Origin: a virus
Lineage: Duplodnaviria > Heunggongvirae > Uroviricota > Caudoviricetes
Reading direction: 5' to 3' (one strand)
Virus record (IMG/VR): IMGVR_UViG_2648501130_000005
Location: 1 to 17,970 of that record
DNA: 17,970 nt
Position 1 is the first letter of the stretch. Every line of letters starts with the position of its first letter. Positions 1-14,781 of the stretch are shown here, piece after piece. The notes under the pieces were generated by a model that was not told the origin of the DNA, made no database searches, and was given only the letters and a program-made list of their open reading frames with translations. Position numbers and translations under genes: made by a program.

Positions 1-2073
1 AGTTGCTAACAGTCTTGTATGGAGAATTCCACTAGATGTGTATGTATTGGTCGAATCACTATATCTATCAAGAAATAGACTGTTAAGTTGAGGGCTGTTG
101 TTCCTACCTAAGCCAAGATTCGTTCTGGCACCATCAACAGTTGCCGCATTAGTGCCTCCTTGTCCAATAGGTAATGGAACCCATGACGATCCGTTATGGC
201 AACCCCACAATCCAGATGTTGACACCTGAAGTCGTGGCGCTGATGGTGAGTAATTCGAATAAACGTAAGTAGTCGATTCGCCTTCTTCAATTCTTTCTGT
301 TAATACTATTTTTTTCCATACACTCCAACCTTGTGTGCTGGTATATATCCTTCTATAAAGAATTGATGAATTGTTATATACAAAATAGCTCTGGATACAA
401 CCATCACTACCATTAGCACCAGTTCTTTGCACTAACAATGCACCAGCAAGCTGTATCGGGTAATTTAGTTCTGGCTTTGCGTTGGCAGACATTGGTTGGT
501 AATAAAAACCGGCTGTAGTACCTTTTATATCGTTTAAGTTCGTATTCGCATCAAGGCCAGTTTTTGCTTCAAACATGACTTCAAGTTTAGAGCGCGCTGT
601 ACTTGCATCATTCGCCCCTGTGCCACCTTGCGCAACTGCGAGCGGTTGCCATCTACCAGCTTTAGGGTTAAATGCGCCCCACTGACCGTCAGCATCAACC
701 TGTAAGTAACAGCCGTCCGCCTGAACGTCAGTAGATAAAATGATGGTTCTTGTGTCGCTTGAACGCTGAAATCGGATAACCTCATCTTTTCTTGCGTGGC
801 GTGTCCATTGCGGGCCTATTGTCGGATTCCAGCGATAAGTATAAAGCGAGCGCGTAGCCCATCCCTGAAATACACCTGTATACGCTGGTGTTCCATCTAC
901 CTGACTAATAAACCCCGTAAGACTGCTTTCACCGGATGCAATCGATGGAAATCCTTTTGCATTACTCATAATGCGCATAAATCCGATATACCCTGATGGG
1001 TTGCCGGAAATATCAGGACAATCACGCGGGGCTGAGCCAAGACCGATATTATCGCCAACAATTAATTGCGCCTGGTTGCGATAATTAAGTGCGTCCGCCG
1101 CAGATTTCGCCGCGTTTGTTTCACTGGATTTAGCATTAGTTTCGCTGGCTTTAGCGTTTGTTTCGCTGCTCTTTGCTGCTGCCTCGCTATTTTTCGCGTT
1201 GGTTTCTGATTTTTTGGCTGCTGTCGCGGAGTTTGCCGATGCAGTTTGTGAGTCTGCTGCCGCCTGTGCGCTGTTACCCGCAATATAAAGGCGTCCGTCC
1301 TGCATCTGCTGCAGCTTCACTGCCCACATGCTGTTCAGGTTATTATTTGTATCAACCTGAACCTTCTGTATCTGCTGGATCGCTGCACTCTGGTCTTCCA
1401 GTTTCTTATTGACGGTCTGTGTTATTTCATTGCTGACATCCGTTATGGACGTCCTGATTTCAGTCAGGTCAGGCGCAAGCTGACCGTTATCAATCTGCGT
1501 CCACAGCTCCTGAGCCAGATGGGTTTTCCCTATCCGGATATTAAACGGGCGCGGCGGCAGGTTATCCACCACCACCGAGGCCAGATACTGCGAGGTGGTT
1601 TTGCCCTTAATGGTGATGTCTTTTTCCGTCACCCAGCCACCATTACGCTGTATCTGAACCAGCAGGCGAACTTCCGACGGATTCCGGTCCCCCTTTGAGG
1701 TGGTTTCCACCAGTGCCTGCACGCCGAAGGTAAAGCGCAGACGGTCGATGTTTGCAGACGTAATGGTGCGGGTGATCGGCGTGTCATATTTCACTTCCGT
1801 ACCCAGCACCGTCTCGGAGCCGGAGGATTCAAACCCCTCCGGCGGTGTCTGCTCCTGCTCACCGGCACGGAACACCACCGTGACACCGGAGATGTTGGTA
1901 TTCCCCTCAGTGTCCAGCACCGGCGTACTGTTCAGCAGCACGCTTTTTAATCCATCCACCGGACCTTCAACCGGCCCTTCGCTGATGGCATCGATCACAC
2001 TCAGCAGCTGCGTGGACTTCAGGTTGTCCTTCGCTTCGCGCGGGGTATGCCCCTTACTGCTGCCTTTACCCAT
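1..2073 (-). CDS. Tail tip / side tail fibre chimeric protein, 3'-partial (runs past window start): lambda J-like N-terminus (~186 aa) followed by fibre-type repeats
   Basis: ATG at 2073-2071, preceded by GGAG/GAGGA. I checked all 691 in-frame triplets down to position 1 and found no stop; it is missing from the ORF track only because no stop lies inside the window. N-terminus MGKGSSKGHTPREAKDNLKSTQLL... matches my recollection of lambda gpJ. Later SETNAK-type repeats and two QGGTGA/QGGTNA...AR.NLGL motifs are typical of enterobacterial side tail fibres. Confidence 0.8.
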   Translation of the reverse strand, partial: MGKGSSKGHTPREAKDNLKSTQLLSVIDAISEGPVEGPVDGLKSVLLNSTPVLDTEGNTNISGVTVVFRAGEQEQTPPEGFESSGSETVLGTEVKYDTPITRTITSANIDRLRFTFGVQALVETTSKGDRNPSEVRLLVQIQRNGGWVTEKDITIKGKTTSQYLASVVVDNLPPRPFNIRIGKTHLAQELWTQIDNGQLAPDLTEIRTSITDVSNEITQTVNKKLEDQSAAIQQIQKVQVDTNNNLNSMWAVKLQQMQDGRLYIAGNSAQAAADSQTASANSATAAKKSETNAKNSEAAAKSSETNAKASETNAKSSETNAAKSAADALNYRNQAQLIVGDNIGLGSAPRDCPDISGNPSGYIGFMRIMSNAKGFPSIASGESSLTGFISQVDGTPAYTGVFQGWATRSLYTYRWNPTIGPQWTRHARKDEVIRFQRSSDTRTIILSTDVQADGCYLQVDADGQWGAFNPKAGRWQPLAVAQGGTGANDASTARSKLEVMFEAKTGLDANTNLNDIKGTTAGFYYQPMSANAKPELNYPIQLAGALLVQRTGANGSDGCIQSYFVYNNSSILYRRIYTSTQGWSVWKKIVLTERIEEGESTTYVYSNYSPSAPRLQVSTSGLWGCHNGSSWVPLPIGQGGTNAATVDGARTNLGLGRNNSPQLNSLFLDRYSDSTNTYTSSGILHTRLLAT

Positions 2074-2095
2074 TCCTCACGCTCCATAAATGACA

Positions 2096-2115
2096 AAACC
2101 GCCCGCAGGCGGTTT
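2096..2115 (-). terminator. Hairpin between the I-like stop and J-like start (perfect 8-bp stem, 4-nt loop, T-rich tail on minus strand)
   Basis: AAACCGCC cgca GGCGGTTT; on the minus strand the stem is followed by TTTTGTCATTT. Same intergenic arrangement as I recall for lambda I-J; may be an attenuator or stability element rather than a full terminator. Confidence 0.4.
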
Positions 2116-2133
2116 CACATAAAACATTTTGCA

Positions 2134-3060
2134 TCAGCGACCAATCACCACAACCTGACCACCGTCCCCTTCGTCTGCCGTGCTGATCTCCTGAGAAACC
2201 ACGCGAGACCCCACGCGCATTTCCCCGTACAGAACAGGCAGAACATTGCCCTGGGCAACCATGTTATCCAGTGAGGAGAAATAGGTGTTCTGCTTACCGT
2301 TATCCGTTGTCTGTGTACGGGGAGTTCTGGCTTTCGGTGCCAGCATCTGCGCCACACCACCGAGCACCATACTGGCACCGAGAGAAAACAGGATGCCGGT
2401 CATACCACCGGTCCCAATGGCTGCCCCCCATGCTGCAAGGGTGGCTCCGGCGGTAAAGAATGATCCGGCAATGGCGGCAGCCCCCAGGACAATCTGGAAT
2501 ACGCCACCTGACTTGGCCCCGGCGACTCTGGGAACAATATGAATCACAGCGCCATCAGGCAGAGTCTCATGTAACTGCGCCGTTAATATGTGCTGTTTGA
2601 GTTGACTTTCTTTTGCCGCATAGCCGTCACTTTTGCCGCGATATGGCCCCTGGTAATGTTCAGCAAACAGAACGCGTTCTGTTGCGGGAAAATATGCGCG
2701 CAGACTTTCTTTATTACACCCGTTCCATCGTCCGGACGGCTTCGCCCAGATAATATGGTTAAGAACGTTGAAACGTTCACGCATCATGATCTCGATATCA
2801 GATGCGAGGCGATGTCCACAGAACAGGTAAAGGCTTCCGGCAGGTTTCAGCACCCGCCAGAACTGAGCCAGACAGTGGTCCAGCCACTTCAGGTAATCTT
2901 CGTCCCCTTTCCACTGATTGTCCCAGCCGTTGGGTTTCACCTTGAAGTACGGCGGATCGGTAACAATCAGGTCAATGGAATCATCAGGCAGGGACTGAAT
3001 AAAATGCAGGCAATCAGCGTTGATTAAATCAACACTGTTTATTTTTACAGTATTTTTCAT
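2134..3060 (-). CDS. Chimeric ORF: N-terminal ~165 aa of a beta-class DNA methyltransferase (DPPY motif, no AdoMet-binding motif) fused in frame to the C-terminal ~140 aa of tail assembly protein I
   Basis: N-terminus has DLIVTDPPYF (motif IV) but no FxGxG motif follows. From about residue 166 the sequence (TAQLHETLPDGAVIHIVPRVAGAKSGG ... GGQVVVIGR) matches my recollection of the lambda gpI C-terminus. Junction at about nt 2582/2583. Probably a non-functional fusion. Confidence 0.65.
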   Translation of the reverse strand: MKNTVKINSVDLINADCLHFIQSLPDDSIDLIVTDPPYFKVKPNGWDNQWKGDEDYLKWLDHCLAQFWRVLKPAGSLYLFCGHRLASDIEIMMRERFNVLNHIIWAKPSGRWNGCNKESLRAYFPATERVLFAEHYQGPYRGKSDGYAAKESQLKQHILTAQLHETLPDGAVIHIVPRVAGAKSGGVFQIVLGAAAIAGSFFTAGATLAAWGAAIGTGGMTGILFSLGASMVLGGVAQMLAPKARTPRTQTTDNGKQNTYFSSLDNMVAQGNVLPVLYGEMRVGSRVVSQEISTADEGDGGQVVVIGR

Positions 3061-3209
3061 GGATCAGTAAGCGTAACTCTGGTAGGCTCACTCTGCTTTT
3101 GCGCTAAAGCAGTGGGCCGTGGTTCGCTTGTGACCAGTAAGCATGAGCGAATGGCTGGCAGGTGCTACCAACACCCACCAGCCGCCCATTTTCACAAATT
3201 AAAAGCCCT

Positions 3210-3404
3210 TCATTGCTGAAGGCGTCTGTAACAGCCGAACTGGTAATCTGCCAGCCCCGCCATAACCAACTGGGTCAGTATTAACTGACAGCGTTCGCGT
3301 GAAAGGTATGTGTTTTGTGCAATCTCCCCGACTGTTGCCGGTTCGATGCTTAATTCATTAAAAACAACTTTCGCCGTTTCTGTCATATCTTGCTGTTTTA
3401 GCAT
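3210..3404 (-). CDS. Small putative winged-helix DNA-binding protein (64 aa), function unknown
   Basis: 64-codon ORF with AAGGT 11 nt upstream of the ATG; the central segment ATVGEIAQNTYLSRERCQLILTQLVMAGL looks like a helix-turn-helix. Divergent from the KAP NTPase gene. Start could instead be the internal Met at 3386. Confidence 0.45.
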   Translation of the reverse strand: MLKQQDMTETAKVVFNELSIEPATVGEIAQNTYLSRERCQLILTQLVMAGLADYQFGCYRRLQQ

Positions 3405-3527
3405 GTCTTTTTACCTTCATGGTTAACATGACATACCAATAACTCTTGTCTAAAAAGCCAGCAAGATAAAAAATCAGTATTCACTACCACCAGCGTGTTT
3501 ACCGTACTGCACCAGGTTTACAGGTAC

Positions 3528-3553
3528 AAAAAAACCCGCTCGACAGCGGGTTT
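3528..3553 (-). terminator. Intrinsic terminator on minus strand (8-bp perfect stem, 5-nt loop, U-run)
   Basis: Plus strand reads AAAAAAA-CCCGCT-cgaca-GCGGGTTT, so the minus-strand RNA has the stem followed by a run of U. No annotated minus-strand gene lies immediately upstream. Confidence 0.5.
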
Positions 3554-3676: not shown

Positions 3677-5008
3677 ATGTTAGATACACTATCTTTCACT
3701 GAACGTGACGAGTTCCAACGAAGAAACATCGCTGAAAATATCATCAAGTTGCTAAAACCAGAGGCAGACATTTCACCACTGGTAATAGACGGCGCATGGG
3801 GAACAGGGAAAACAGAATTTAGTATCAAACTGAAAAATCTCATTATTGAGCAAGAAACTGAATCTAAAGTTGTTTATATTGATGCCTTTAAAGGGGATCA
3901 TGCAGAATCTCCATTACTTCTCATAACCTCTGCAATTGCCAGCATTTTGCCTGAGGAAGAAAAACAACACTTCATTAAGAGATCTCTTCCTGCAATTCGC
4001 TTTGGTTTAAAAACGGTACTAAAAGCTGGTGCAGGTTGGTTTTTACGACAGGAGGCTAGTGAAGTTGCCGAAGAATTCCAAGATGCGATGAAGAAAGCAA
4101 GCAATGCAGCAATAGATGGGACTATTGAAAATTTGCTTGAAGACCATATGGACTCAGAGAAAAACATAAATTCACTTAAATCCTGCATCGAAAGCATATC
4201 AAAAAATCAAAAAATCGTAATTATAATTGATGAATTAGACCGATGTAAGCCGAGTTTTTCAACAAATGTCATTGAAACAATAAAACACATTTTTGACATC
4301 AATAATGTCTTTTTTATTTTAGTTACAAACACAGAACAATTAAAAGCATCTATAAATCATATTTATGGTTATAGCATTAACTCACAAAAGTATCTTGACA
4401 AGTTTATAAAATATACCATCACGCTTCCAGATACATGTTTGATAAATGGTCACAACGTATGTAAAGCCTCTGTTATATATTGGGATTACCTTGTAGAAAA
4501 AACAAGGTTATTGAATAAAATCAATAGATTATCAGGTTACTTTATCCGTGATTTAATTCAACGAACCAACTTATCATTACGTGAAACACAAACATTTTCA
4601 CGCAATCTTAACATTTTCCAACTGTTAAACGACGATGAGAACAAAAGCAGTGATCCTTTAATAAATATGATCTTTGTCGTAGCTGCCTTCATACATTGCT
4701 TTGGTAACAAGGAAAAACTAAAACAAGAAATTACCGCTGAATCTATATCTTATTTAGCAGACCTGCTTAACATAAAAGAAATACCTTATTCTTATGAGAG
4801 AAGATCGCAAATCCCTGAAATATCGATTGTATTCTTCGGAATAATTAAAGACAGTATTACTCTTAATGAGCGATTTGCCCCTAAAAGTGATGAAGAACTT
4901 AAAAAATTCACAAATGTTTATACTGATTATGAACACATAAATTTTTGGAGTACTACACCCAGAGAGTTATTGATAAAATATATTAATCAAATGTCATTCA
5001 TCCAGTAA
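3677..5008 (+). CDS. KAP-family P-loop NTPase (443 aa)
   Basis: Walker A DGAWGTGKT and the KAP-typical Walker B region IVIIIDELDRCKP. Visibly AT-rich with long A/T runs compared with flanking genes. Ends at the hairpin at 5011-5035. Confidence 0.85.
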   Translation: MLDTLSFTERDEFQRRNIAENIIKLLKPEADISPLVIDGAWGTGKTEFSIKLKNLIIEQETESKVVYIDAFKGDHAESPLLLITSAIASILPEEEKQHFIKRSLPAIRFGLKTVLKAGAGWFLRQEASEVAEEFQDAMKKASNAAIDGTIENLLEDHMDSEKNINSLKSCIESISKNQKIVIIIDELDRCKPSFSTNVIETIKHIFDINNVFFILVTNTEQLKASINHIYGYSINSQKYLDKFIKYTITLPDTCLINGHNVCKASVIYWDYLVEKTRLLNKINRLSGYFIRDLIQRTNLSLRETQTFSRNLNIFQLLNDDENKSSDPLINMIFVVAAFIHCFGNKEKLKQEITAESISYLADLLNIKEIPYSYERRSQIPEISIVFFGIIKDSITLNERFAPKSDEELKKFTNVYTDYEHINFWSTTPRELLIKYINQMSFIQ

Positions 5009-5010
5009 AT

Positions 5011-5035
5011 AATACGCCCCATGCAGGGGCGTATT
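5011..5035. terminator. Bidirectional intrinsic terminator between convergent KAP NTPase and Q genes
   Basis: Perfect 10-bp inverted repeat AATACGCCCC / GGGGCGTATT with loop ATGCA, sitting exactly between the KAP stop (5008) and the Q stop (5037), with A/T-rich flanks on both sides. Confidence 0.6.
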
Positions 5036-5036
5036 A

Positions 5037-5402
5037 TTAAACGTCCAAATCTAATGTTAGATCTAGCATGGAAAGGCAGCCATCAATAAATCCTTCGGCT
5101 AGCTGTATTTCTATACGTATCAATTTCTCATCTTTTTTACGAGCCTTGGCGAGCTTTCTTTTAGAGATACCGTATAGGTAATGGGCAACAAGAAGCGAAT
5201 GTTCGTCCGGCCTTTTTTGCTTTAGATGAGCAAGACAACCTTCAATAATTAAGGCATCACTATCCGAACAAGCCAAGCGTTTCTTGCTTGTATAGGGAAG
5301 AAGTCCCTTAAACCCAGCGGCTATAGGTGAATAATCAACGCCTGAACTATCACTCGCCGCCCATGCCCCCCAACGCTCCAGAACCATCTGAATATCACGC
5401 AT
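5037..5402 (-). CDS. Antitermination protein Q (QuuD-like lambdoid late-gene antiterminator)
   Basis: N-terminus MRDIQMVLERWGAWAA... is the signature I recall for E. coli prophage Q/QuuD proteins. ATG at 5402 with GGTGGAGA upstream; the track's first residue is a TTG one codon earlier. Confidence 0.8.
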   Translation of the reverse strand: MRDIQMVLERWGAWAASDSSGVDYSPIAAGFKGLLPYTSKKRLACSDSDALIIEGCLAHLKQKRPDEHSLLVAHYLYGISKRKLAKARKKDEKLIRIEIQLAEGFIDGCLSMLDLTLDLDV

Positions 5403-5419
5403 CAACTTTCTCCACCAAA

Positions 5420-6415
5420 TCAGGCTAGCACACCAATTGCCAACACACGGTCGATAAAACGAAATATCAGCTCCAGCTGGGAGCCATACTTCTCTTCAAA
5501 TGCCACGGTATCCGCATGCAGCTCGTCGTGATGCTTTCTGCACAAAGGCAACACAAAGAGGTCATGCGCTTTTGTACTCATTCCCCCCTGACCGTGGCCT
5601 ATCAGGTGGTGGGGATCATCAGCAGGCTTTCCACAACATGCACACGGCTGTGTCTTAACCCAGCGCGTGTACTTTTCATTAACCCAGCGGCGACGTTTGG
5701 GGCGTAACATAAAAGACTCCGGCGACTCCGGTTCCACTTTCAGCGCCAGCACCTTTTTCGCTTTATCCTGCATGATGCTGGTGGCTGGAACCGAAGGCAC
5801 AAGGTCACTTTCCCGGGTGACAGACGGCACAACAGGCTTCGGTAATCTCAGTGCCTTACGGGCTGCGCTTTCCGGTAAGGCATCCGCCAGATCATTACGA
5901 ACCAGCCACCAGCACAGTTCCGGCATTGTCACAACGTGACTATCATCAAAACCGAGATCCCGACGCACAACAGACAACACCCAGCGGGCACAGTTATCCG
6001 TTGCCATTGATTCCAGCCGTTCCGTGAACTGATCGCGCAGTTGGTTATCGCAGTGCCAGCACAGACGGATTGCGCCAGGCGCGTGTCGCATTGTGGTCAT
6101 GTTCTCGCTGTGCCAGTTGGAATGAGGCCACTGGCAGCCTTTTTCACGAAGTAACCAGCTTTCAAGACATTCCACGCCACCAGCACGACGGATCACTGCC
6201 TCATTGCGGAACACGGCCCGAACGGCAGGATCATCCGCCAGCGGTTGTGATGCCGCCGGAACGGCACCACTGGCGAAAGATGAATAACGTTCCGGCTCAG
6301 GCTCCAGCAGTACACGCCCCTGCATAAACAGGGGCATCAACTCTGAACCTGGCCTGAACAATACGATCCCCATACGCGGGGCAATTTCAGGGGTCAGTAG
6401 TGCTCTCACGGTCAC
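5420..6415 (-). CDS. DUF968-like nin-region protein with C-terminal HNH-like Cys/His motif
   Basis: C-terminal CACCGKPADDPHHLIGHGQGG...LCRKHHDELH; placed between KilA-N and Q as in lambdoid nin regions. Start uncertain: GTG at 6415 or 6409, or ATG at 6373; none has a clean SD. Confidence 0.6.
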   Translation of the reverse strand: MTVRALLTPEIAPRMGIVLFRPGSELMPLFMQGRVLLEPEPERYSSFASGAVPAASQPLADDPAVRAVFRNEAVIRRAGGVECLESWLLREKGCQWPHSNWHSENMTTMRHAPGAIRLCWHCDNQLRDQFTERLESMATDNCARWVLSVVRRDLGFDDSHVVTMPELCWWLVRNDLADALPESAARKALRLPKPVVPSVTRESDLVPSVPATSIMQDKAKKVLALKVEPESPESFMLRPKRRRWVNEKYTRWVKTQPCACCGKPADDPHHLIGHGQGGMSTKAHDLFVLPLCRKHHDELHADTVAFEEKYGSQLELIFRFIDRVLAIGVLA

Positions 6416-6416
6416 C

Positions 6417-7226
6417 TCAATGAACGGTATCGAGCAGCTTTAACAGCTCAGGGAATCGGGATTCGAAGAAATGCGGCTGCGTCTCGCGCGGATTTGCAGG
6501 ACTGGTGATGTTCTTGCCGAACATGCAGCCTTTCGCCGTCAGCGACCAGAATTTTTTGATGTTGTTAATCGCTGTACGGCTGTATCGTTCGCGCTGTTCG
6601 ACGATCCCCAGCTTCGCCATCTGGTGATATGCCTGATTAGCCGTAAGGCGGATACCATACTGTTTCAGCAGTGCACTCAGCGACAGTGTCGGGCGACTTG
6701 AGCCATCAGGCGCGTCAGCAGGAGCATCAATGGCATAGCGCGGTGCCAGATTCGGTAAGCCAACAGCCTCCTGGAGTTTCTGACAGGCCCCAAGCACTGA
6801 AGAGTTAGACAGGTTTAACTCCCTGCGCATAAAGTCCAGCAGAATCACGCCAGCCTGCATCTTGTCAGCAGCCTGCCCGGATAATTTTTCCGGTGCGCTG
6901 GTTACCATATCGAAAGTACGGATCACCTTCAGATGGAATGACGGGCTGATCCACATTGCATAGGCATACACCAGTTCTTTGCAGACATACGTCCCCTGGT
7001 TATTTCCGCCATTAATGACGCTAACTGGTTGATTTTGTTCCAGAGGCGGAATTCCACCCTCGGTGAAAAGTTGTTCAATCAATTCACAGGTTTGCTTATT
7101 GGAGAGCCAGTATTTCGGGCGGTTTTTTTGTTCTCCCCCGGCTGCCCTGTGCAGATCGTTCAGGCTGTAACGCCCATAAGCATCACGACGAACTTCAATA
7201 CCATCAATGACCATCAGATTATTCAT
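6417..7226 (-). CDS. KilA-N domain protein
   Basis: N-terminal MVIDGIEVRRDAYGRYSLNDLHRAAGG...YVCKELVYAYAMWISPSFHLKVIR is KilA-N-like. ATG at 7226 with AGGAGA 9 nt upstream; the track's GTG at 7259 was rejected. Confidence 0.7.
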   Translation of the reverse strand: MNNLMVIDGIEVRRDAYGRYSLNDLHRAAGGEQKNRPKYWLSNKQTCELIEQLFTEGGIPPLEQNQPVSVINGGNNQGTYVCKELVYAYAMWISPSFHLKVIRTFDMVTSAPEKLSGQAADKMQAGVILLDFMRRELNLSNSSVLGACQKLQEAVGLPNLAPRYAIDAPADAPDGSSRPTLSLSALLKQYGIRLTANQAYHQMAKLGIVEQRERYSRTAINNIKKFWSLTAKGCMFGKNITSPANPRETQPHFFESRFPELLKLLDTVH

Positions 7227-7245
7227 ACTTCGTTTCTCCTCTTGA

Positions 7246-7635
7246 TCAGGCGGCTGCACCCGCCGTTTTCTCGTACTTACTGATAGTGATCTCGACCTTC
7301 CCTTCCGGGATAACCGGTCCCCACTCCACCAGCATTCTTTTCACCTGGCTGTCGTCTTCCCACACACCCGCGTGGGTCAGGGCGTCAAACAGCGCCTTGT
7401 TATAGTTGTCCAGATCGCGGATCCGGTTATCCGGAGGAAACAACACGATCTCCACTGAAGCAGGTGCCGACGTTGGTTTCGGCAGACGACGTAACTGCTC
7501 AACTATTGCTGTGCACGCCGCACTTTGGAATTTTCGCCCCGCCGCGCTTATCAGGCTCTTACCAGCAAATGCCCCTTTGTTGGGGTGTCGCCAGTAGGTG
7601 TTCACGCTGGGTGGAAAAGGCAGAATCAGCTTCAT
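7246..7635 (-). CDS. rusA: Holliday junction resolvase RusA
   Basis: LPFPPSVNTYWRH ... RDLDNYNKALFDALTHAGVWEDDSQV matches the RusA family signature. Start ATG overlaps the upstream stop (ATGA). Confidence 0.85.
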   Translation of the reverse strand: MKLILPFPPSVNTYWRHPNKGAFAGKSLISAAGRKFQSAACTAIVEQLRRLPKPTSAPASVEIVLFPPDNRIRDLDNYNKALFDALTHAGVWEDDSQVKRMLVEWGPVIPEGKVEITISKYEKTAGAAA

Positions 7636-7958
7636 ACTTTCAGCCCCCTCTCATGTAACCAGTGGGCTGCACGCAGCCTTGCGTTTTCCTCACCGGCAAG
7701 CAGTGAGCGGATAATCCCGACCGCCTCGCTGTCGTCGTCCTTCACCGCGGTATGAAGCGTGATCCCCCGGGCCACACCACGCTTTATCGTGATGACGCCT
7801 TTTTTCTCCAGTGCGCGAAGATGCTCCACCGCTGCATTCACCGAACGGTATCCCAGCATGGTTGCCACCTCCTGATTGGTTGGCGGGAAGCCGCGTTCTT
7901 TCTGATAAGAAATCAGCATATCCAGCACCTGCTGCTGGCATTGAGTTAACGTCGTCAT
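7632..7958 (-). CDS. LexA N-terminal DNA-binding-domain-like protein (no peptidase domain)
   Basis: LTQCQQQVLDMLISYQKERGFPPTNQEVATMLGYRSVNAAVEHLRALEKKGVITIKRGVARGITL aligns closely with the LexA N-terminal winged helix as I recall it (…RSPNAAEEHLKALARKGVIEI…). Only 108 aa, so no S24 cleavage domain. ATGA overlaps at both ends. Confidence 0.75.
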   Translation of the reverse strand: MTTLTQCQQQVLDMLISYQKERGFPPTNQEVATMLGYRSVNAAVEHLRALEKKGVITIKRGVARGITLHTAVKDDDSEAVGIIRSLLAGEENARLRAAHWLHERGLKV

Positions 7959-8608
7959 GCCGCCATCTCCCTGACCAGTTTTTCTGCCTGCTGGCGAATC
8001 TGCGCCAGAAAGGCCTCACCACATGCCTCAAGTTCATCGCGCCCGATGTAGCTGATTGCCGGTCCCTTCCAGGTCTTGTCGAAAACAGCAATAGCACCAG
8101 CGAAGAAAGCGCCTGTCGGCACCTGCTTCTCATCCTTCGGGATAAACCAGGCAGGCAGTTCAAAACCAATACGCCCGCGAATAAAAGCAATATGATCTAC
8201 ATCTTCCGGCCACCACACTTCGCTGGTGGCAGCTTTGATCAGGAAAACATAGCGCCCGCCTTTATCACGCATGGCACTGGCATGCTTCATGATGTAACGC
8301 ATGCCGGTGATGTATTGCCCCTCATGCTGACTGGCGCGGCTGTATGGGGGATTACCAAAGGCAGCACCTTTAAGCTCCGCAAGGCGTTCTGACCAGTCAT
8401 GCGCCAGCGCGTTGTCTTCCGCCGTGTAATACGCAGCACATTTGGCGTTATCACCGTCAGTGAACAGATCCAGAACAAACGGGCCAAACAGGGTGTTAAT
8501 TCCCCAGAAAATGTTGTCCGGCGTGCGCCACTGATCGCCCACTTCCTTCAGTTCATGGGCTGGTTTGTTCCGCAGTTCCACCAGCGCCTGGCAATATTTA
8601 TTACTCAT
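7955..8608 (-). CDS. Phage N6-adenine DNA methyltransferase (Dam-type)
   Basis: GNPPYS (NPPY catalytic motif). ATG at 8608 with GTGGGGG upstream, overlapping the upstream TAA (TAATG). The track's GTG extension to 8641 was rejected. Confidence 0.75.
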   Translation of the reverse strand: MSNKYCQALVELRNKPAHELKEVGDQWRTPDNIFWGINTLFGPFVLDLFTDGDNAKCAAYYTAEDNALAHDWSERLAELKGAAFGNPPYSRASQHEGQYITGMRYIMKHASAMRDKGGRYVFLIKAATSEVWWPEDVDHIAFIRGRIGFELPAWFIPKDEKQVPTGAFFAGAIAVFDKTWKGPAISYIGRDELEACGEAFLAQIRQQAEKLVREMAA

Positions 8609-9096
8609 TAAGCCCCCACGTAATTCCCTGAGAGATACCACTCTTCACCTGATGCAGCCCGCTTACTGCTTTTCCGTAAACACCGTTCACGACGCGCCAA
8701 AAAATTGTTTCGTTCTGGCAGGGAGTGGCTTTCACGGAATGCCGCCATCCACACCGTTGCAGCACGACGGTATAAGCCCCTGGACTCCAGTTCTTCCGCC
8801 TGGCGGGTCAGGCACAAAATCACCCGCGGGTCGTTAGTGCCGACATAGAAATTGCGCACAGGTCTGGTTTCACGAACTGGTTGTGGTTCCGGATCCTGCG
8901 CTCTCTCAGTCAGGCGCGGGAAATGTCTGTGTGTATCTCCTTCACAACGGTGAGCCACACGCCCACTCTGACGTAACTTGCTTGCTGACTGCAGAACGCG
9001 CTGCCGTGAGTAACCTGCAAAAGCATCCGCAATGTCTCCGGAAGTACAGCCCGGATGGGCTTCAATGAATTTCTGAACGTCATTCAAAAGACTCAT
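8608..9096 (-). CDS. Putative transcriptional regulator with PerC-like C-terminal region
   Basis: AEELESRGLYRRAATVWMAAF resembles the PerC/Pch core motif (LESAGFWRRAAARW type). ATG at 9096 with GGGGGTGA upstream, 2 nt after the replication gene stop. Confidence 0.55.
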   Translation of the reverse strand: MSLLNDVQKFIEAHPGCTSGDIADAFAGYSRQRVLQSASKLRQSGRVAHRCEGDTHRHFPRLTERAQDPEPQPVRETRPVRNFYVGTNDPRVILCLTRQAEELESRGLYRRAATVWMAAFRESHSLPERNNFLARRERCLRKSSKRAASGEEWYLSGNYVGA

Positions 9097-9098
9097 GC

Positions 9099-9869
9099 TC
9101 ACCCCCTGAATCCTGCCGGGATCTGGCTGTAGTCCACATTGTCGTAACTGGCTTTGAAGTACGGGTCTTCGCGTTTTTCTGTGTACGTGCTGACGGACGG
9201 CGATAAGCGCAGGGAAAGCTCATCCCATTTTTCCCGCAGCTTCGACGGGCTGAGCACGTTACGGCACCAGAACGGATCGCGGCTGACGCGGCTGTACATC
9301 TCGCAGATTTGTTTGTGAGTACGACCATCCTGCACACACATCAGGCGAATTTCGTTTGCCCAGGCTGTCCAGTTCGGTTCTTTGGGACGAACCACCTCGC
9401 CGTCACATTCGGCAGCCTGCTCGTACAGGGCGATGATTTTTTTCCAGAGCCACTGTGCGCAGGTCAAATCATCCTGCGTCCCCCACTGGCGCTTTTTAGG
9501 GCTGAATACAACCGCATCAGGATGGCGAGTTAAAAAATCCTGTTCATCCGTCTGCGTGTCCGGTTGCGAAGCGTCCGGACGAGAAGGTTTTTTATCTGAC
9601 GGATCATGTTTTGATTTTACTGACGGATCCCCGCCAGATTCTGACGGGTGAAAACCCGCTTTTTTGCCAGATTTCGACGCATCAAATTTTGACGGGTCAG
9701 ATTTTGATGCGTCAGATTTTGACGGGTCAGAATCTGACAGTTGAGAAAATGCCGCTGCCTGAAGCTTCGCAACGTTAAGCTGATAAACATTCGACGCATT
9801 GCGGTTACCCACGGTTAGCCTCATCGTTCTGTGGTTTCTGTTAATCGATTTATCCATTAGATTTTTCAT
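9099..9869 (-). CDS. Replication initiation protein (lambda O-like role) with internal iteron-encoded peptide repeats
   Basis: Sits directly downstream of cro. The central SDSDPSKSDASKSDPSKFDASKSG region is encoded by tandem DNA repeats. Start uncertain: ATG at 9869, 9857 or 9824; the track's first codon at 9926 is GTG and lies deep inside cro. Confidence 0.6.
   Translation of the reverse strand: MKNLMDKSINRNHRTMRLTVGNRNASNVYQLNVAKLQAAAFSQLSDSDPSKSDASKSDPSKFDASKSGKKAGFHPSESGGDPSVKSKHDPSDKKPSRPDASQPDTQTDEQDFLTRHPDAVVFSPKKRQWGTQDDLTCAQWLWKKIIALYEQAAECDGEVVRPKEPNWTAWANEIRLMCVQDGRTHKQICEMYSRVSRDPFWCRNVLSPSKLREKWDELSLRLSPSVSTYTEKREDPYFKASYDNVDYSQIPAGFRG
9590..9740. repeat. Iteron array (putative origin of replication) inside the replication initiator gene
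   Basis: At least seven tandem ~15-17 bp copies of a (C)AGATTTTGACGGGTCA-like unit, e.g. attttgacgggtcag / attttgatgcgtcag / attttgacgggtcag. Analogous to the lambda ori iterons inside gene O. Confidence 0.6.
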
Positions 9870-10050
9870 AAAGCTCAGGTTTAAATGGCAACCGTCCGCA
9901 AGTTCTATATGCAGCTTCTGCTGCACGTCCTTTTGGAATTAACTGGCCCGGACGGTTTCGCCACTGATAAACGGCTTCAGTTGTTATGCCGAAAAAAGCA
10001 GCAACTTTCTCAATACTGCCGAAGTAGCTTTCGATATCGTCAGTTGTCAT
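9850..10050 (-). CDS. Cro-like transcriptional regulator
   Basis: 66 aa, divergent from the repressor gene; KVAAFFGITTEAVYQWR is a Cro/YdaS-type helix-turn-helix. Confidence 0.7.
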   Translation of the reverse strand: MTTDDIESYFGSIEKVAAFFGITTEAVYQWRNRPGQLIPKGRAAEAAYRTCGRLPFKPELYEKSNG

Positions 10051-10147
10051 ACGCCCTCCAAACTAAGTTTTATTAGATGCTAATTACAAATCTATCTTTG
10101 GTCAATAAAAACTAAGATTACTTAGCAATTAAAGAAATGGTGCTCCT
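10051..10147. promoter_or_regulatory. Divergent promoter/operator region between cro-like and cI-like genes
   Basis: 97-bp AT-rich intergenic region with two 14-bp palindromes: CTAAGattaCTTAG (10112-10125, perfect) and CTAAGttttATTAG (10063-10076, one mismatch). Minus strand carries TTGACC and a possible -10. Confidence 0.55.
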
Positions 10148-10774
10148 ATGGAAACGGTTGGTCAGCGTATAAAAGCTCTGAGAAGAGTTACCAGAACGTC
10201 CCAGAAAGAATTGGGTAAATTTTGTGGAGTAAGCGACGTTGCTGTGGGGTACTGGGAGAAAGACATCAATACCCCTGGTGGGGAGGCACTTTCGAAATTA
10301 GCGAAGTTCTTCAATACGTCAATAGATTACATTCTTTATGGTGCTGAGTTTGAAGGCAAACTCGTCACAAACATGCGCAGAGTTCCTGTAATATCGTGGG
10401 TTCAGGCTGGGCAGTTTACTGAGTGCAGGGCAGCAGAAGTGTTTAGTGAAGTGGACAAGTGGGTAGATACATCATTAAAGGTTGGTGATAACTCATTTGC
10501 ATTAGAGGTTAAAGGTGACTCCATGACTAACCCTAATGGCCTCCCAACAATACCAGAAGGCGCAACAGTGATTGTAGATCCAGATGCAGAACCTCGTCAT
10601 GGAAAAATAGTCATCGCTCGACTTGATGGAACAAACGAAGCTACAGTAAAAAAATTAGTCATCGATGGCCCTCAAAAGTTTTTAGTACCATTAAATCCTC
10701 GGTATCCCAACATCCCTATCAATGGTAATTGCCTTATCATTGGTGTAGTCAAAGGAGTTCAATACGAACTCTAA
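10148..10774 (+). CDS. CI-like prophage repressor (HTH plus S24 LexA-type autopeptidase domain)
   Basis: N-terminal XRE-type HTH (QKELGKFCGVSDVAVGYWE); C-terminal GDSM and a downstream Lys (VKKLV) typical of S24 self-cleaving repressors. SD-like sequence before the ATG. Confidence 0.85.
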   Translation: METVGQRIKALRRVTRTSQKELGKFCGVSDVAVGYWEKDINTPGGEALSKLAKFFNTSIDYILYGAEFEGKLVTNMRRVPVISWVQAGQFTECRAAEVFSEVDKWVDTSLKVGDNSFALEVKGDSMTNPNGLPTIPEGATVIVDPDAEPRHGKIVIARLDGTNEATVKKLVIDGPQKFLVPLNPRYPNIPINGNCLIIGVVKGVQYEL

Positions 10775-13375: not shown

Positions 13376-13912
13376 ATGTCATTTATTAAAACTTTTTCCG
13401 GGAAGCATTTTTATTATGACAGGATAAATAAAGACGACATCGTTATTAACGATATCGCGGTTTCTCTTTCAAATATCTGTCGCTTTGCAGGGCATCTTTC
13501 ACATTTCTACAGCGTTGCCCAACATGCGGTGCTTTGCAGCCAACTGGTACCGCAGGAATTTGCTTTTGAAGCGTTAATGCATGATGCAACAGAAGCGTAT
13601 TGCCAGGACATCCCGGCGCCACTGAAACGCCTTCTTCCTGACTATAAACGGATGGAAGAAAAAATAGATGCAGTAATCCGTGAGAAATACGAGTTGCCCC
13701 CGGTTATGAGCACGCCCGTGAAATATGCCGATCTCATCATGCTGGCAACCGAACGCCGTGATCTCGGGCTTGATGATGGCTCTTTATGGCCTGTACTGGA
13801 AGGTATCCCGGCAACAGAGATGTTCAAAGTTATTCCACTGGCACCGGGCCATGCCTACGGGATGTTTATGGAACGCTTCAACGAGTTATCGGAATTACGC
13901 AAATGTGCATAA
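13376..13912 (+). CDS. yfdR: HD-domain phosphohydrolase (YfdR-like, 178 aa)
   Basis: H...HD motif (AQHAV ... LMHDATEAY). ATG at 13376 with GGAGA upstream; the track's GTG at 13349 was rejected. Its 3' end overlaps the next gene by 10 nt. Confidence 0.8.
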   Translation: MSFIKTFSGKHFYYDRINKDDIVINDIAVSLSNICRFAGHLSHFYSVAQHAVLCSQLVPQEFAFEALMHDATEAYCQDIPAPLKRLLPDYKRMEEKIDAVIREKYELPPVMSTPVKYADLIMLATERRDLGLDDGSLWPVLEGIPATEMFKVIPLAPGHAYGMFMERFNELSELRKCA

Positions 13913-14781
13913 CTCATGTAGTTAGTTTTTCTGGCGGGAGAACATCCGCATATCTTGTTCACCTGATGGAAGAACAAAGAAAGGCTGGCAATAACGTCTG
14001 CTACATCTTTATGGATACCGGTTGCGAACATCCGCTGACATACCGCTTTATCCGGGAGGTTGTGAAGTTCTGGGACATACCACTAACTGTGTTACAGGTC
14101 GATATAAATCCTGAGCTTGGGCAGCCAAATGGTTATACAGAATGGGAGCCAAAGGATATTCAGACACGAATGCCGGTGCTTAAACCGTTTATGGACATGG
14201 TTAAAAAGTACGGCACGCCATACATCGGCGGCGCGCTCTGTACTGATAGGCTAAAACTCATCCCTTTCACAAAATACTGCGATAACCATTTCGGGCGAGG
14301 TAATTACATCACATGGCTGGGTATTCGTGCAGACGAACCCCGTAGGCTGAAACCGAAATCGGGCGTCCGGTATCTTGCCGAGCTGTCAGATTTTGATAAG
14401 TCGGATGTTATCCGGTGGTGGCGAAAACAACCTTTTGATTTGCAAATCCCGGAGCATCTCGGGAACTGTGTTTTCTGCATCAAAAAGTCAACGCAAAAGC
14501 TGGGGCTTGCATGTAAAGACGAACCAGGTCTGATGCGAGTTTTTAATGAGCTGGTTACAGGCAAACACGTCAGGGATGGTCATCGCAGAACAGGTAAAGA
14601 CATTATGTACCGTGGTCACCTGACGCTTGACGGAATTGCCAGAATGTCTGCCAACAGCGACTACAGAAATTTGTATCAGGCGATGGTACAGGCCAGGCGA
14701 TTCGATACCGGCTCGTGTTCAGAGTCATGTGAAATCTGGGGTGATCAATTGGAATTGGAATTCAAAGAGGTAGGGGTATGA
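13903..14781 (+). CDS. PAPS-reductase-like PP-loop ATP pyrophosphatase family protein with C-terminal Cys cluster
   Basis: PP-loop VVSFSGGRTSAYL near the N-terminus; Cys pairs (CVFC, CSESC) near the C-terminus. ATG at 13903 overlaps the HD gene stop; the track's 13786 start is an upstream in-frame extension inside the HD gene. Confidence 0.8.
   Translation: MCITHVVSFSGGRTSAYLVHLMEEQRKAGNNVCYIFMDTGCEHPLTYRFIREVVKFWDIPLTVLQVDINPELGQPNGYTEWEPKDIQTRMPVLKPFMDMVKKYGTPYIGGALCTDRLKLIPFTKYCDNHFGRGNYITWLGIRADEPRRLKPKSGVRYLAELSDFDKSDVIRWWRKQPFDLQIPEHLGNCVFCIKKSTQKLGLACKDEPGLMRVFNELVTGKHVRDGHRRTGKDIMYRGHLTLDGIARMSANSDYRNLYQAMVQARRFDTGSCSESCEIWGDQLELEFKEVGV

Follow-up and report, generated by a model that had tools for sequence, protein, structure and literature searches.

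A phage-encoded LexA DNA-binding domain without autocleavage domain in the early-right operon of SfV-like prophages of Escherichia coli

Three overlapping genes of an SfV-like prophage

We analyzed a stretch of 17,970 nucleotides (the window, in what follows) from the IMG/VR record IMGVR_UViG_2648501130_000005. It corresponds to an SfV-like lambdoid prophage of Escherichia coli located at tRNA-Thr (thrW) and adjoining proA, and its nearest match is E. coli YD786, with 100% identity across 94% of the window. The subject of this work is a small gene in its early-right operon that codes for a LexA-like protein, flanked by genes for a Dam methyltransferase and a RusA resolvase. The three open reading frames (ORFs) are intact, lie on the minus strand and are read in the order Dam, LexA-like, RusA (Table 1), with the RefSeq start of Dam at the ATG of 8608. 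An earlier note, made from the sequence alone, had described them as joined by ATGA overlaps of stop and start codons, and both overlaps are present, appearing as tcat on the plus strand. The names given there to the flanking genes also held, since both score above the cut-offs of their models (TIGR01712 and PF05866). The overlaps are real, yet undistinctive, because the whole operon is equally packed: the O-like gene and yfdN share GTGA, yfdN and dam share TAATG at 8606 to 8610, and the stop codon of RusA is only 20 nt from the annotated start of KilA-N.

Domain structure of the LexA-like protein

The protein is found in RefSeq as WP_000210164.1 (“LexA family transcriptional regulator”). Its description as a LexA-type protein of 108 amino acids without an autocleavage domain was borne out by the profile searches. 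Pfam LexA_DNA_bind (PF01726) was matched over profile positions 1 to 65 of 65 (E = 2.9e-19), while TIGR00498, the lexA equivalog, gave 70.8 bits, below its cut-off of 110.95, and covered only model positions 1 to 91 of 203. No match to Peptidase_S24 was found in Pfam, and the chain ends at residue 108. Lacking that domain, the protein cannot undergo RecA-stimulated self-cleavage. The best PHROG match was phrog_362 (E = 1.4e-59, residues 1 to 108 against profile positions 1 to 106 of 106), named “transcriptional repressor,” which is an annotation label.

Over residues 1 to 69 the identity to E. coli LexA is 51%, and the best sequence matches in PDB are LexA N-terminal domains (1lea, E = 7e-16 by phmmer). 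The AlphaFold2 model, with a mean predicted local distance difference test score (pLDDT) of 79, has helices at residues 6 to 22, 28 to 35 and 40 to 52 and strands at 56 to 59 and 65 to 68, i.e., the three-helix, two-strand winged helix of the LexA type. Foldseek superimposed it on chain B of the LexA-DNA complex 3JSO (3jso_B) with a root mean square deviation of 1.5 Å over 68 residues and 50% identity. After a low-confidence linker (residues 69 to 74), a two-helix tail stands in the place of the S24 domain; its hydrophobic pattern is kept in relatives at 39 to 52% identity, and three tail sequences scanned against Pfam gave nothing significant. HMMER paired A88-G89 of the tail with A84-G85 of LexA, and we considered a pseudo-substrate that would be cleaved in trans or block an active site. 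This was rejected: the dipeptide varies among family members (AN, VG, ER, TR, SG or DD are found instead) and the segment is modeled as a helix. The conserved Ala-Gly cleavage site of LexA is absent from the LexA-like family. Membership of a defense system was also discarded, as PADLOC returned only a marginal CARF match (E = 3.6e-4). Among the related proteins, several (P0132, P0148, P0155 and others) carry two tandem LexA DNA-binding domains per chain, one of them together with a PTPS domain, and may be single-chain dimers of the LexA domain.

The DNA contacts of E. coli LexA are Ser39, Asn41, Ala42, Glu44 and Glu45, a list that we took from two secondary sources (PMC3091678 and PMC13416735). 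The peptide quoted in the earlier note as closely resembling LexA, RSVNAAVEHLRALEKKG, corresponds to residues 38 to 54. For four of the five contacts (S39, N41, A42 and E45) the resemblance is exact, and it fails at position 44, where Glu is replaced by Val. All the relatives at 39 to 66% identity (from Citrobacter, Cronobacter, Kosakonia, Enterobacter and Cedecea) have S39, and almost all have N41. From these residues, the half-site recognized in the E. coli clade is probably CTGT-like and binding to SOS boxes is plausible, but an identical specificity is not to be assumed.

Selection and prevalence

The 84 loci examined contained 51 distinct alleles of the gene, none of them with an internal stop. 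Variant codons were synonymous in 49 cases and nonsynonymous in 14; only three of the latter fall within residues 1 to 69, and none at positions 39 to 46. The pattern points to purifying selection, concentrated on the DNA-binding domain.

The gene is widespread. A query of 1,651 bases (positions 7100 to 8750, containing the three genes) matched 2,675 of 5,426 complete E. coli genomes, 1,667 of them at a coverage of at least 80%. It is further encoded in 61 phage records of GenBank, among them SfV, SfII, SfIV, cdtI, mEp460 and the Stx2a-, Stx2c- and Stx2k-converting phages; some of the carriers are Shigella serotype-converting phages. In prophages of Escherichia, Shigella, Citrobacter, Kluyvera, Kosakonia and Enterobacter it is always located between the replication genes and DUF968/Q, with Dam, RusA and KilA-N as optional neighbors. 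In 11 diverse loci it is directly upstream of RusA, or of DUF968 where RusA is absent. Its names in the deposited records range from “unknown” to “LexA family transcriptional regulator,” and some records misname it “SOS-response repressor and protease LexA” or “RecA-mediated autopeptidases.” Our literature search gave no experimental work on the enterobacterial protein; the gene is common and already annotated, yet uncharacterized.

SOS boxes in the lineage

Only one strong SOS box was detected in the window (Table 1), and it contains the only exact CTGT-N8-ACAG (3035 to 3050). It scored 20.8 to 21.3 bits with a position-specific scoring matrix, a value within the spread of the boxes used for training, and none of 50 shuffles exceeded 17.0. 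Homologs of the methyltransferase from Citrobacter, Klebsiella, Kluyvera, Kosakonia and Enterobacter have the box at the same codons. Its persistence across five genera, in spite of differences in the encoded residues, points to a genuine LexA site within the coding sequence. The box is a candidate cis target of host LexA and of the LexA-like protein alike. The methyltransferase ORF (2134 to 3060) matches only positions 1 to 104 of the 221 of its profile and continues as a fragment similar to lambda tail protein I, which is followed by gpJ (window positions 1 to 3060).

Carriers of the LexA-like gene have boxes in three recurrent settings: the start of the methyltransferase, the inside of a cI-like gene and the region upstream of a KilA-N gene. 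A perfect or near-perfect box, TACTGTAT[A/G]TAAAAACAGT[A/G], is found in locus L083 (2103 to 2122), in L001 (14402 to 14421) and in L085 (1865 to 1884), the last one known from the matrix scan alone. In L083 and L001 it is inside the cI-like repressor gene, which in L083 means the linker between the helix-turn-helix (HTH) and S24 domains. Another one, TACTGTATTTATGAACAGTG, is at 10765 to 10784 of L337 (also in L340, L321 and L339), in the 150-bp intergenic gap that separates RusA from a variant KilA-N gene and ca. 100 bp upstream of the KilA-N start. It looks like a LexA-controlled promoter of the antirepressor type; the KilA-N gene of the window has no such 150-bp gap. There are also two overlapping weak SOS-like half-palindromes in the window (3444 to 3479, minus strand; 7 to 9 bits; CTGA-N8-CTTG and CTGG-N8-ACAAG), 40 to 75 nt upstream of a small orf47-like gene (3209 to 3403) and just past the late terminator-like hairpin.

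We carried out a census of strong boxes (at least 18 bits) in IMG/VR loci, limited among the carriers to those with upstream flanks of 4 kb or more and downstream flanks of 7.5 kb or more. Such a box was present in 23 of the 43 carrier loci. The control lambdoid lineage, with lambda-type Q (80 loci, 1.34 Mb), had neither boxes of this strength nor LexA-like genes. The gene and the orf48-type methyltransferase occur together in 63 of 66 loci and in at least 28 of 29 GenBank phages, a co-occurrence that may reflect only linkage and shared ancestry.

Operon and prophage context

The early region comprises CI, a P22-type Cro and a pR-like promoter, and then O-like, yfdN/PerC, Dam, LexA-like, RusA, KilA-N, DUF968 and Q. 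The pR-like promoter upstream of cro is the likely origin of the transcript that contains dam, the LexA-like gene and rusA, judging from its match to the consensus. The consensus scan of the window gave no promoter-like site directly upstream of dam on the minus strand, and the internal promoter annotated at this place in the SfV record was discarded for this window. The LexA-like gene is downstream of cro and of the replication genes, and therefore its expression is expected only after derepression; from this gene order it should be off while the lysogen is repressed and come on after CI cleavage. With an S24 domain, CI appears to be the SOS sensor of the prophage itself. The earlier note had suggested that the LexA-like protein would matter for the control of induction, but the prophage owns a cleavable CI, which makes a role of the LexA-like protein as induction switch improbable.

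The prophage is a defective deletion remnant with an intact early region. The tail gene gpJ abuts the truncated orf48-type DNA methyltransferase, and the window is devoid of lysis and head genes. The O-like replication gene contains a 15-bp unit, CAGATTTTGACGGGT, in 4.3 copies (9668 to 9731), which resemble the iterons of a lambda-type origin. A KAP-family P-loop NTPase (3677 to 5008, plus strand), matching the PADLOC candidate defense family PDC-S20 (E = 4.5e-177), has been inserted between Q and a strong terminator-like hairpin (3532 to 3553) and is read in the opposite direction. Finally, a protein of the PAPS-reductase family (13786 to 14781, plus strand) is encoded in the leftward operon, beside homologs of yfdR and yfdQ.

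Table 1. Location of the features discussed in the text (window coordinates)
Feature	Position	Strand	Evidence or remarks
Dam, phage N-6-adenine methyltransferase	7955-8608	-	TIGR01712, 256.3 bits vs cut-off 97.05; Pfam Dam, E = 1.3e-45
ATGA overlap, Dam stop/LexA-like start	7955-7958	-	plus strand tcat
LexA DNA-binding-domain-only protein, 108 aa	7632-7958	-	Pfam LexA_DNA_bind; phrog_362
Winged helix-turn-helix domain, residues 1-69	7752-7958	-	35/69 identity to E. coli LexA
Recognition helix, residues 40-52 (VNAAVEHLRALEK), S39 just before	7803-7841	-	match to LexA contacts
C-terminal two-helix tail, residues 74-102	7653-7739	-	AlphaFold2 helices 74-87 and 93-102, pLDDT ~88
ATGA overlap, LexA-like stop/RusA start	7632-7635	-	plus strand tcat
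RusA-family Holliday-junction resolvase	7246-7635	-	PF05866, E = 7.4e-15, 56.1 bits vs 22.8; phrog_34, E = 1e-57
Only strong SOS box in the window, TACTGTAAAAATAAACAGTG	3033-3052	-	codons 3-9 of truncated orf48-type N6/N4 DNA methyltransferase, downstream of Q
cro	9850-10050		downstream of pR-like promoter
pR-like promoter upstream of cro	10077-10105	-	TTGACC-17-TAGCAT consensus match
CI-type repressor, HTH_3 and self-cleaving Peptidase_S24	10148-10774	+	Pfam, E = 1.8e-27

LexA domains fused to RusA and DUF968

At the same locus of Kluyvera and Klebsiella prophages, a single ORF codes for a LexA_DNA_bind domain (residues 1 to 65), a linker of 12 residues and a complete RusA (residues 86 to 199, by Pfam). 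As in the window, the DNA-binding domain is homologous, the location is the same and RusA is the partner; the difference is that RusA is covalently attached and the tail is absent, whereas the window has separate proteins connected by an ATGA overlap. The fused domain is ca. 60% identical to residues 1 to 82 of the window protein. We found the fusion in at least 24 sequence clusters (P0311 to P0334), with identities of 74 to 97%, one of them with a strongly diverged RusA part. Two of these ORFs, in the Kluyvera loci L086 and L087, both extend from 5001 to 5603; some gene callers annotate the RusA part alone. A different arrangement was found in P0158 (240 amino acids, from a 401-kb metagenome contig), where a LexA domain (residues 33 to 94) precedes the C-terminal HNH part of DUF968 (residues 112 to 237) and replaces the usual DUF968 N-terminal domain. 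RusA is dimeric, and the tail of the window protein may be a dimerization module that RusA can replace. It is also possible that the LexA domain works together with the RusA and DUF968 nucleases.

Possible function and known analogs

Our preferred interpretation, which we put forward tentatively and would rate at somewhat under an even chance, is that the LexA-like protein is a RecA-insensitive operator binder of the LexA type, made after derepression and acting on SOS boxes. It would derive from the N-terminal domain of an enterobacterial LexA and would be synthesized from the early-right (pR) operon only after inactivation of CI, at the time when host LexA is being destroyed. Pairing through the C-terminal two-helix tail, it would bind to SOS-box palindromes of the CTGT type, both those of phages of the lineage and the operators of the host, restoring a LexA-type occupancy that RecA could not remove. 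In its favor are the observed fold, the lack of a cleavage domain, the four retained contacts, the purifying selection concentrated on the DNA-binding domain, the place of the gene in the operon and the SOS boxes of the lineage, whereas dimerization by the tail, the actual DNA target and repression rather than activation are here inferred. A possible role of the tail as a dimerization module would fit this scheme.

Several observations weigh against the preferred interpretation. Position 44 is never Glu in the family, residues 42 or 45 are altered in divergent members across genera, and the full-length LexA proteins retrieved in the same search have Glu at position 44 in 9 of 11 cases. The loss of Glu44 and the changes at 42 and 45 are unexpected if the target is the invariant SOS box of the host. 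The isolated N-terminal domain of LexA binds DNA only weakly. As for the boxes, 20 of the 43 carrier loci have no strong one within 10 kb, and the scoring matrix was built from a non-curated list of E. coli boxes, a caveat that applies to all the scores. Moreover, the association of boxes with the gene holds between lineages only: 57 of 60 loci with SfV-type Q carry the gene, and the three that lack it are too few for a test within the lineage (Fisher p = 0.57). Lastly, the only characterized analog, gp6 of phage GIL01, recognizes a different palindrome and activates transcription.

GIL01 is a tectivirus of Bacillus thuringiensis, and its gp6, a truncated LexA homolog of 66 amino acids, binds GaCACAnnTGTGaC at -43.5 of the late promoter P3, which it activates and which host LexA represses together with gp7 (PMC6182141). 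Both gp6 and the window protein are early phage products made up essentially of the winged-helix domain of LexA, with no S24 peptidase, and both phage lineages are wired to host LexA through SOS boxes. The two proteins gave no BLASTP alignment at E ≤ 100 and therefore the shared architecture arose independently, by separate captures from the LexA of different hosts. There are other differences. The window protein has a conserved 35-residue two-helix tail and gp6 has none, the recognition helix and the site have both changed in gp6 while the window protein keeps four of the five E. coli LexA contacts, and GIL01 has no repressor of its own, unlike this prophage with its cleavable CI. Compared with E. 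coli LexA itself, the window protein has the same N-terminal fold and shares S39, N41, A42 and E45, but Glu44 is replaced and it has neither the S24 catalytic and dimerization domain nor the conserved Ala-Gly site. A phage regulator reduced to the LexA domain is already known as a concept, and in the single case tested the protein activates transcription and has an altered specificity.

The precedent of gp6 opens the most serious alternative, i.e., that the domain has drifted toward a phage-specific operator, SOS-like or not, and times the expression of phage genes with no meaningful action on the host SOS regulon. We consider this unlikely, although far from negligible. The absence of Glu at position 44 and the variation of 42 and 45 between genera are the pattern expected of a protein coevolving with its site, and the gene is located just upstream of Q and the late region. 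However, the E. coli clade retains four of the five LexA contacts, in contrast to gp6 with its altered recognition helix. No conserved non-SOS palindrome traveling with the gene was identified, the immunity regions and Q types vary among carriers, and late expression is already served by the Q antiterminator.

Other phage proteins hold down LexA-controlled genes, which is the outcome proposed in our preferred interpretation for the window protein. In GIL01, gp7 stabilizes LexA on DNA and blocks its cleavage (PMC4551915), and AriS of a Listeria phage down-regulates the SOS response and cohabiting prophages (PMC9043618). They are unrelated to the window protein, gp7 acting via host LexA and AriS via an ANT/KilAC domain, and neither is a LexA-like DNA binder.

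In another alternative, the domain would tether or dimerize with RusA or with the DUF968 HNH nuclease and would act in recombination or DNA processing and not in transcription. The RusA fusions, in their many clusters from Kluyvera and Klebsiella, the union with the HNH part of DUF968 in P0158, the position directly upstream of one or the other in the 11 diverse loci and the ATGA overlap with RusA in the window all fit this possibility. Nevertheless, fusions of adjacent genes can come from deletion, as was clearly the case of P0371 in E. coli, and tight coupling is general in the operon. RusA also does without the LexA-like gene, being present in 59 of the 80 control lambdoid loci, where no LexA-like gene was found. 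If RusA is dimeric, the need for dimerization explains the fusion equally well. A role as nuclease partner seems improbable. A more specific version, in which the domain targets or dimerizes the neighboring nucleases and brings the resolvase or nuclease to SOS-box DNA freed by LexA cleavage, we regard as a long shot; if true, it would mean a sequence-directed step of recombination or DNA processing tied to the SOS state.

Very improbable, in our opinion, is an SOS inducer or decoy that competes or interferes with intact LexA without repressing and so raises SOS expression and prophage induction, a variant of the competition with LexA contemplated in the earlier note: the LexA fold and most contact residues make operator competition physically possible, but any occupant of an operator overlapping a promoter would be expected to repress by itself, the gene is behind a CI-controlled pR-like promoter and would be made once LexA is under cleavage, with little left to compete with, and there is no LexA C-terminal domain for heterodimerization.

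Implications for phage and host

If the LexA-like protein is indeed a LexA surrogate that RecA cannot remove, the phage would have a means of shutting off SOS-controlled genes at a time of its own choosing. Its reach would presumably extend to SOS functions and to the LexA-controlled antirepressors of co-resident prophages, and it could affect induction dynamics, the biology of Shiga-toxin phages and mutagenesis after antibiotic stress. The gene matters through its prevalence and its presence in Shiga-toxin phages.

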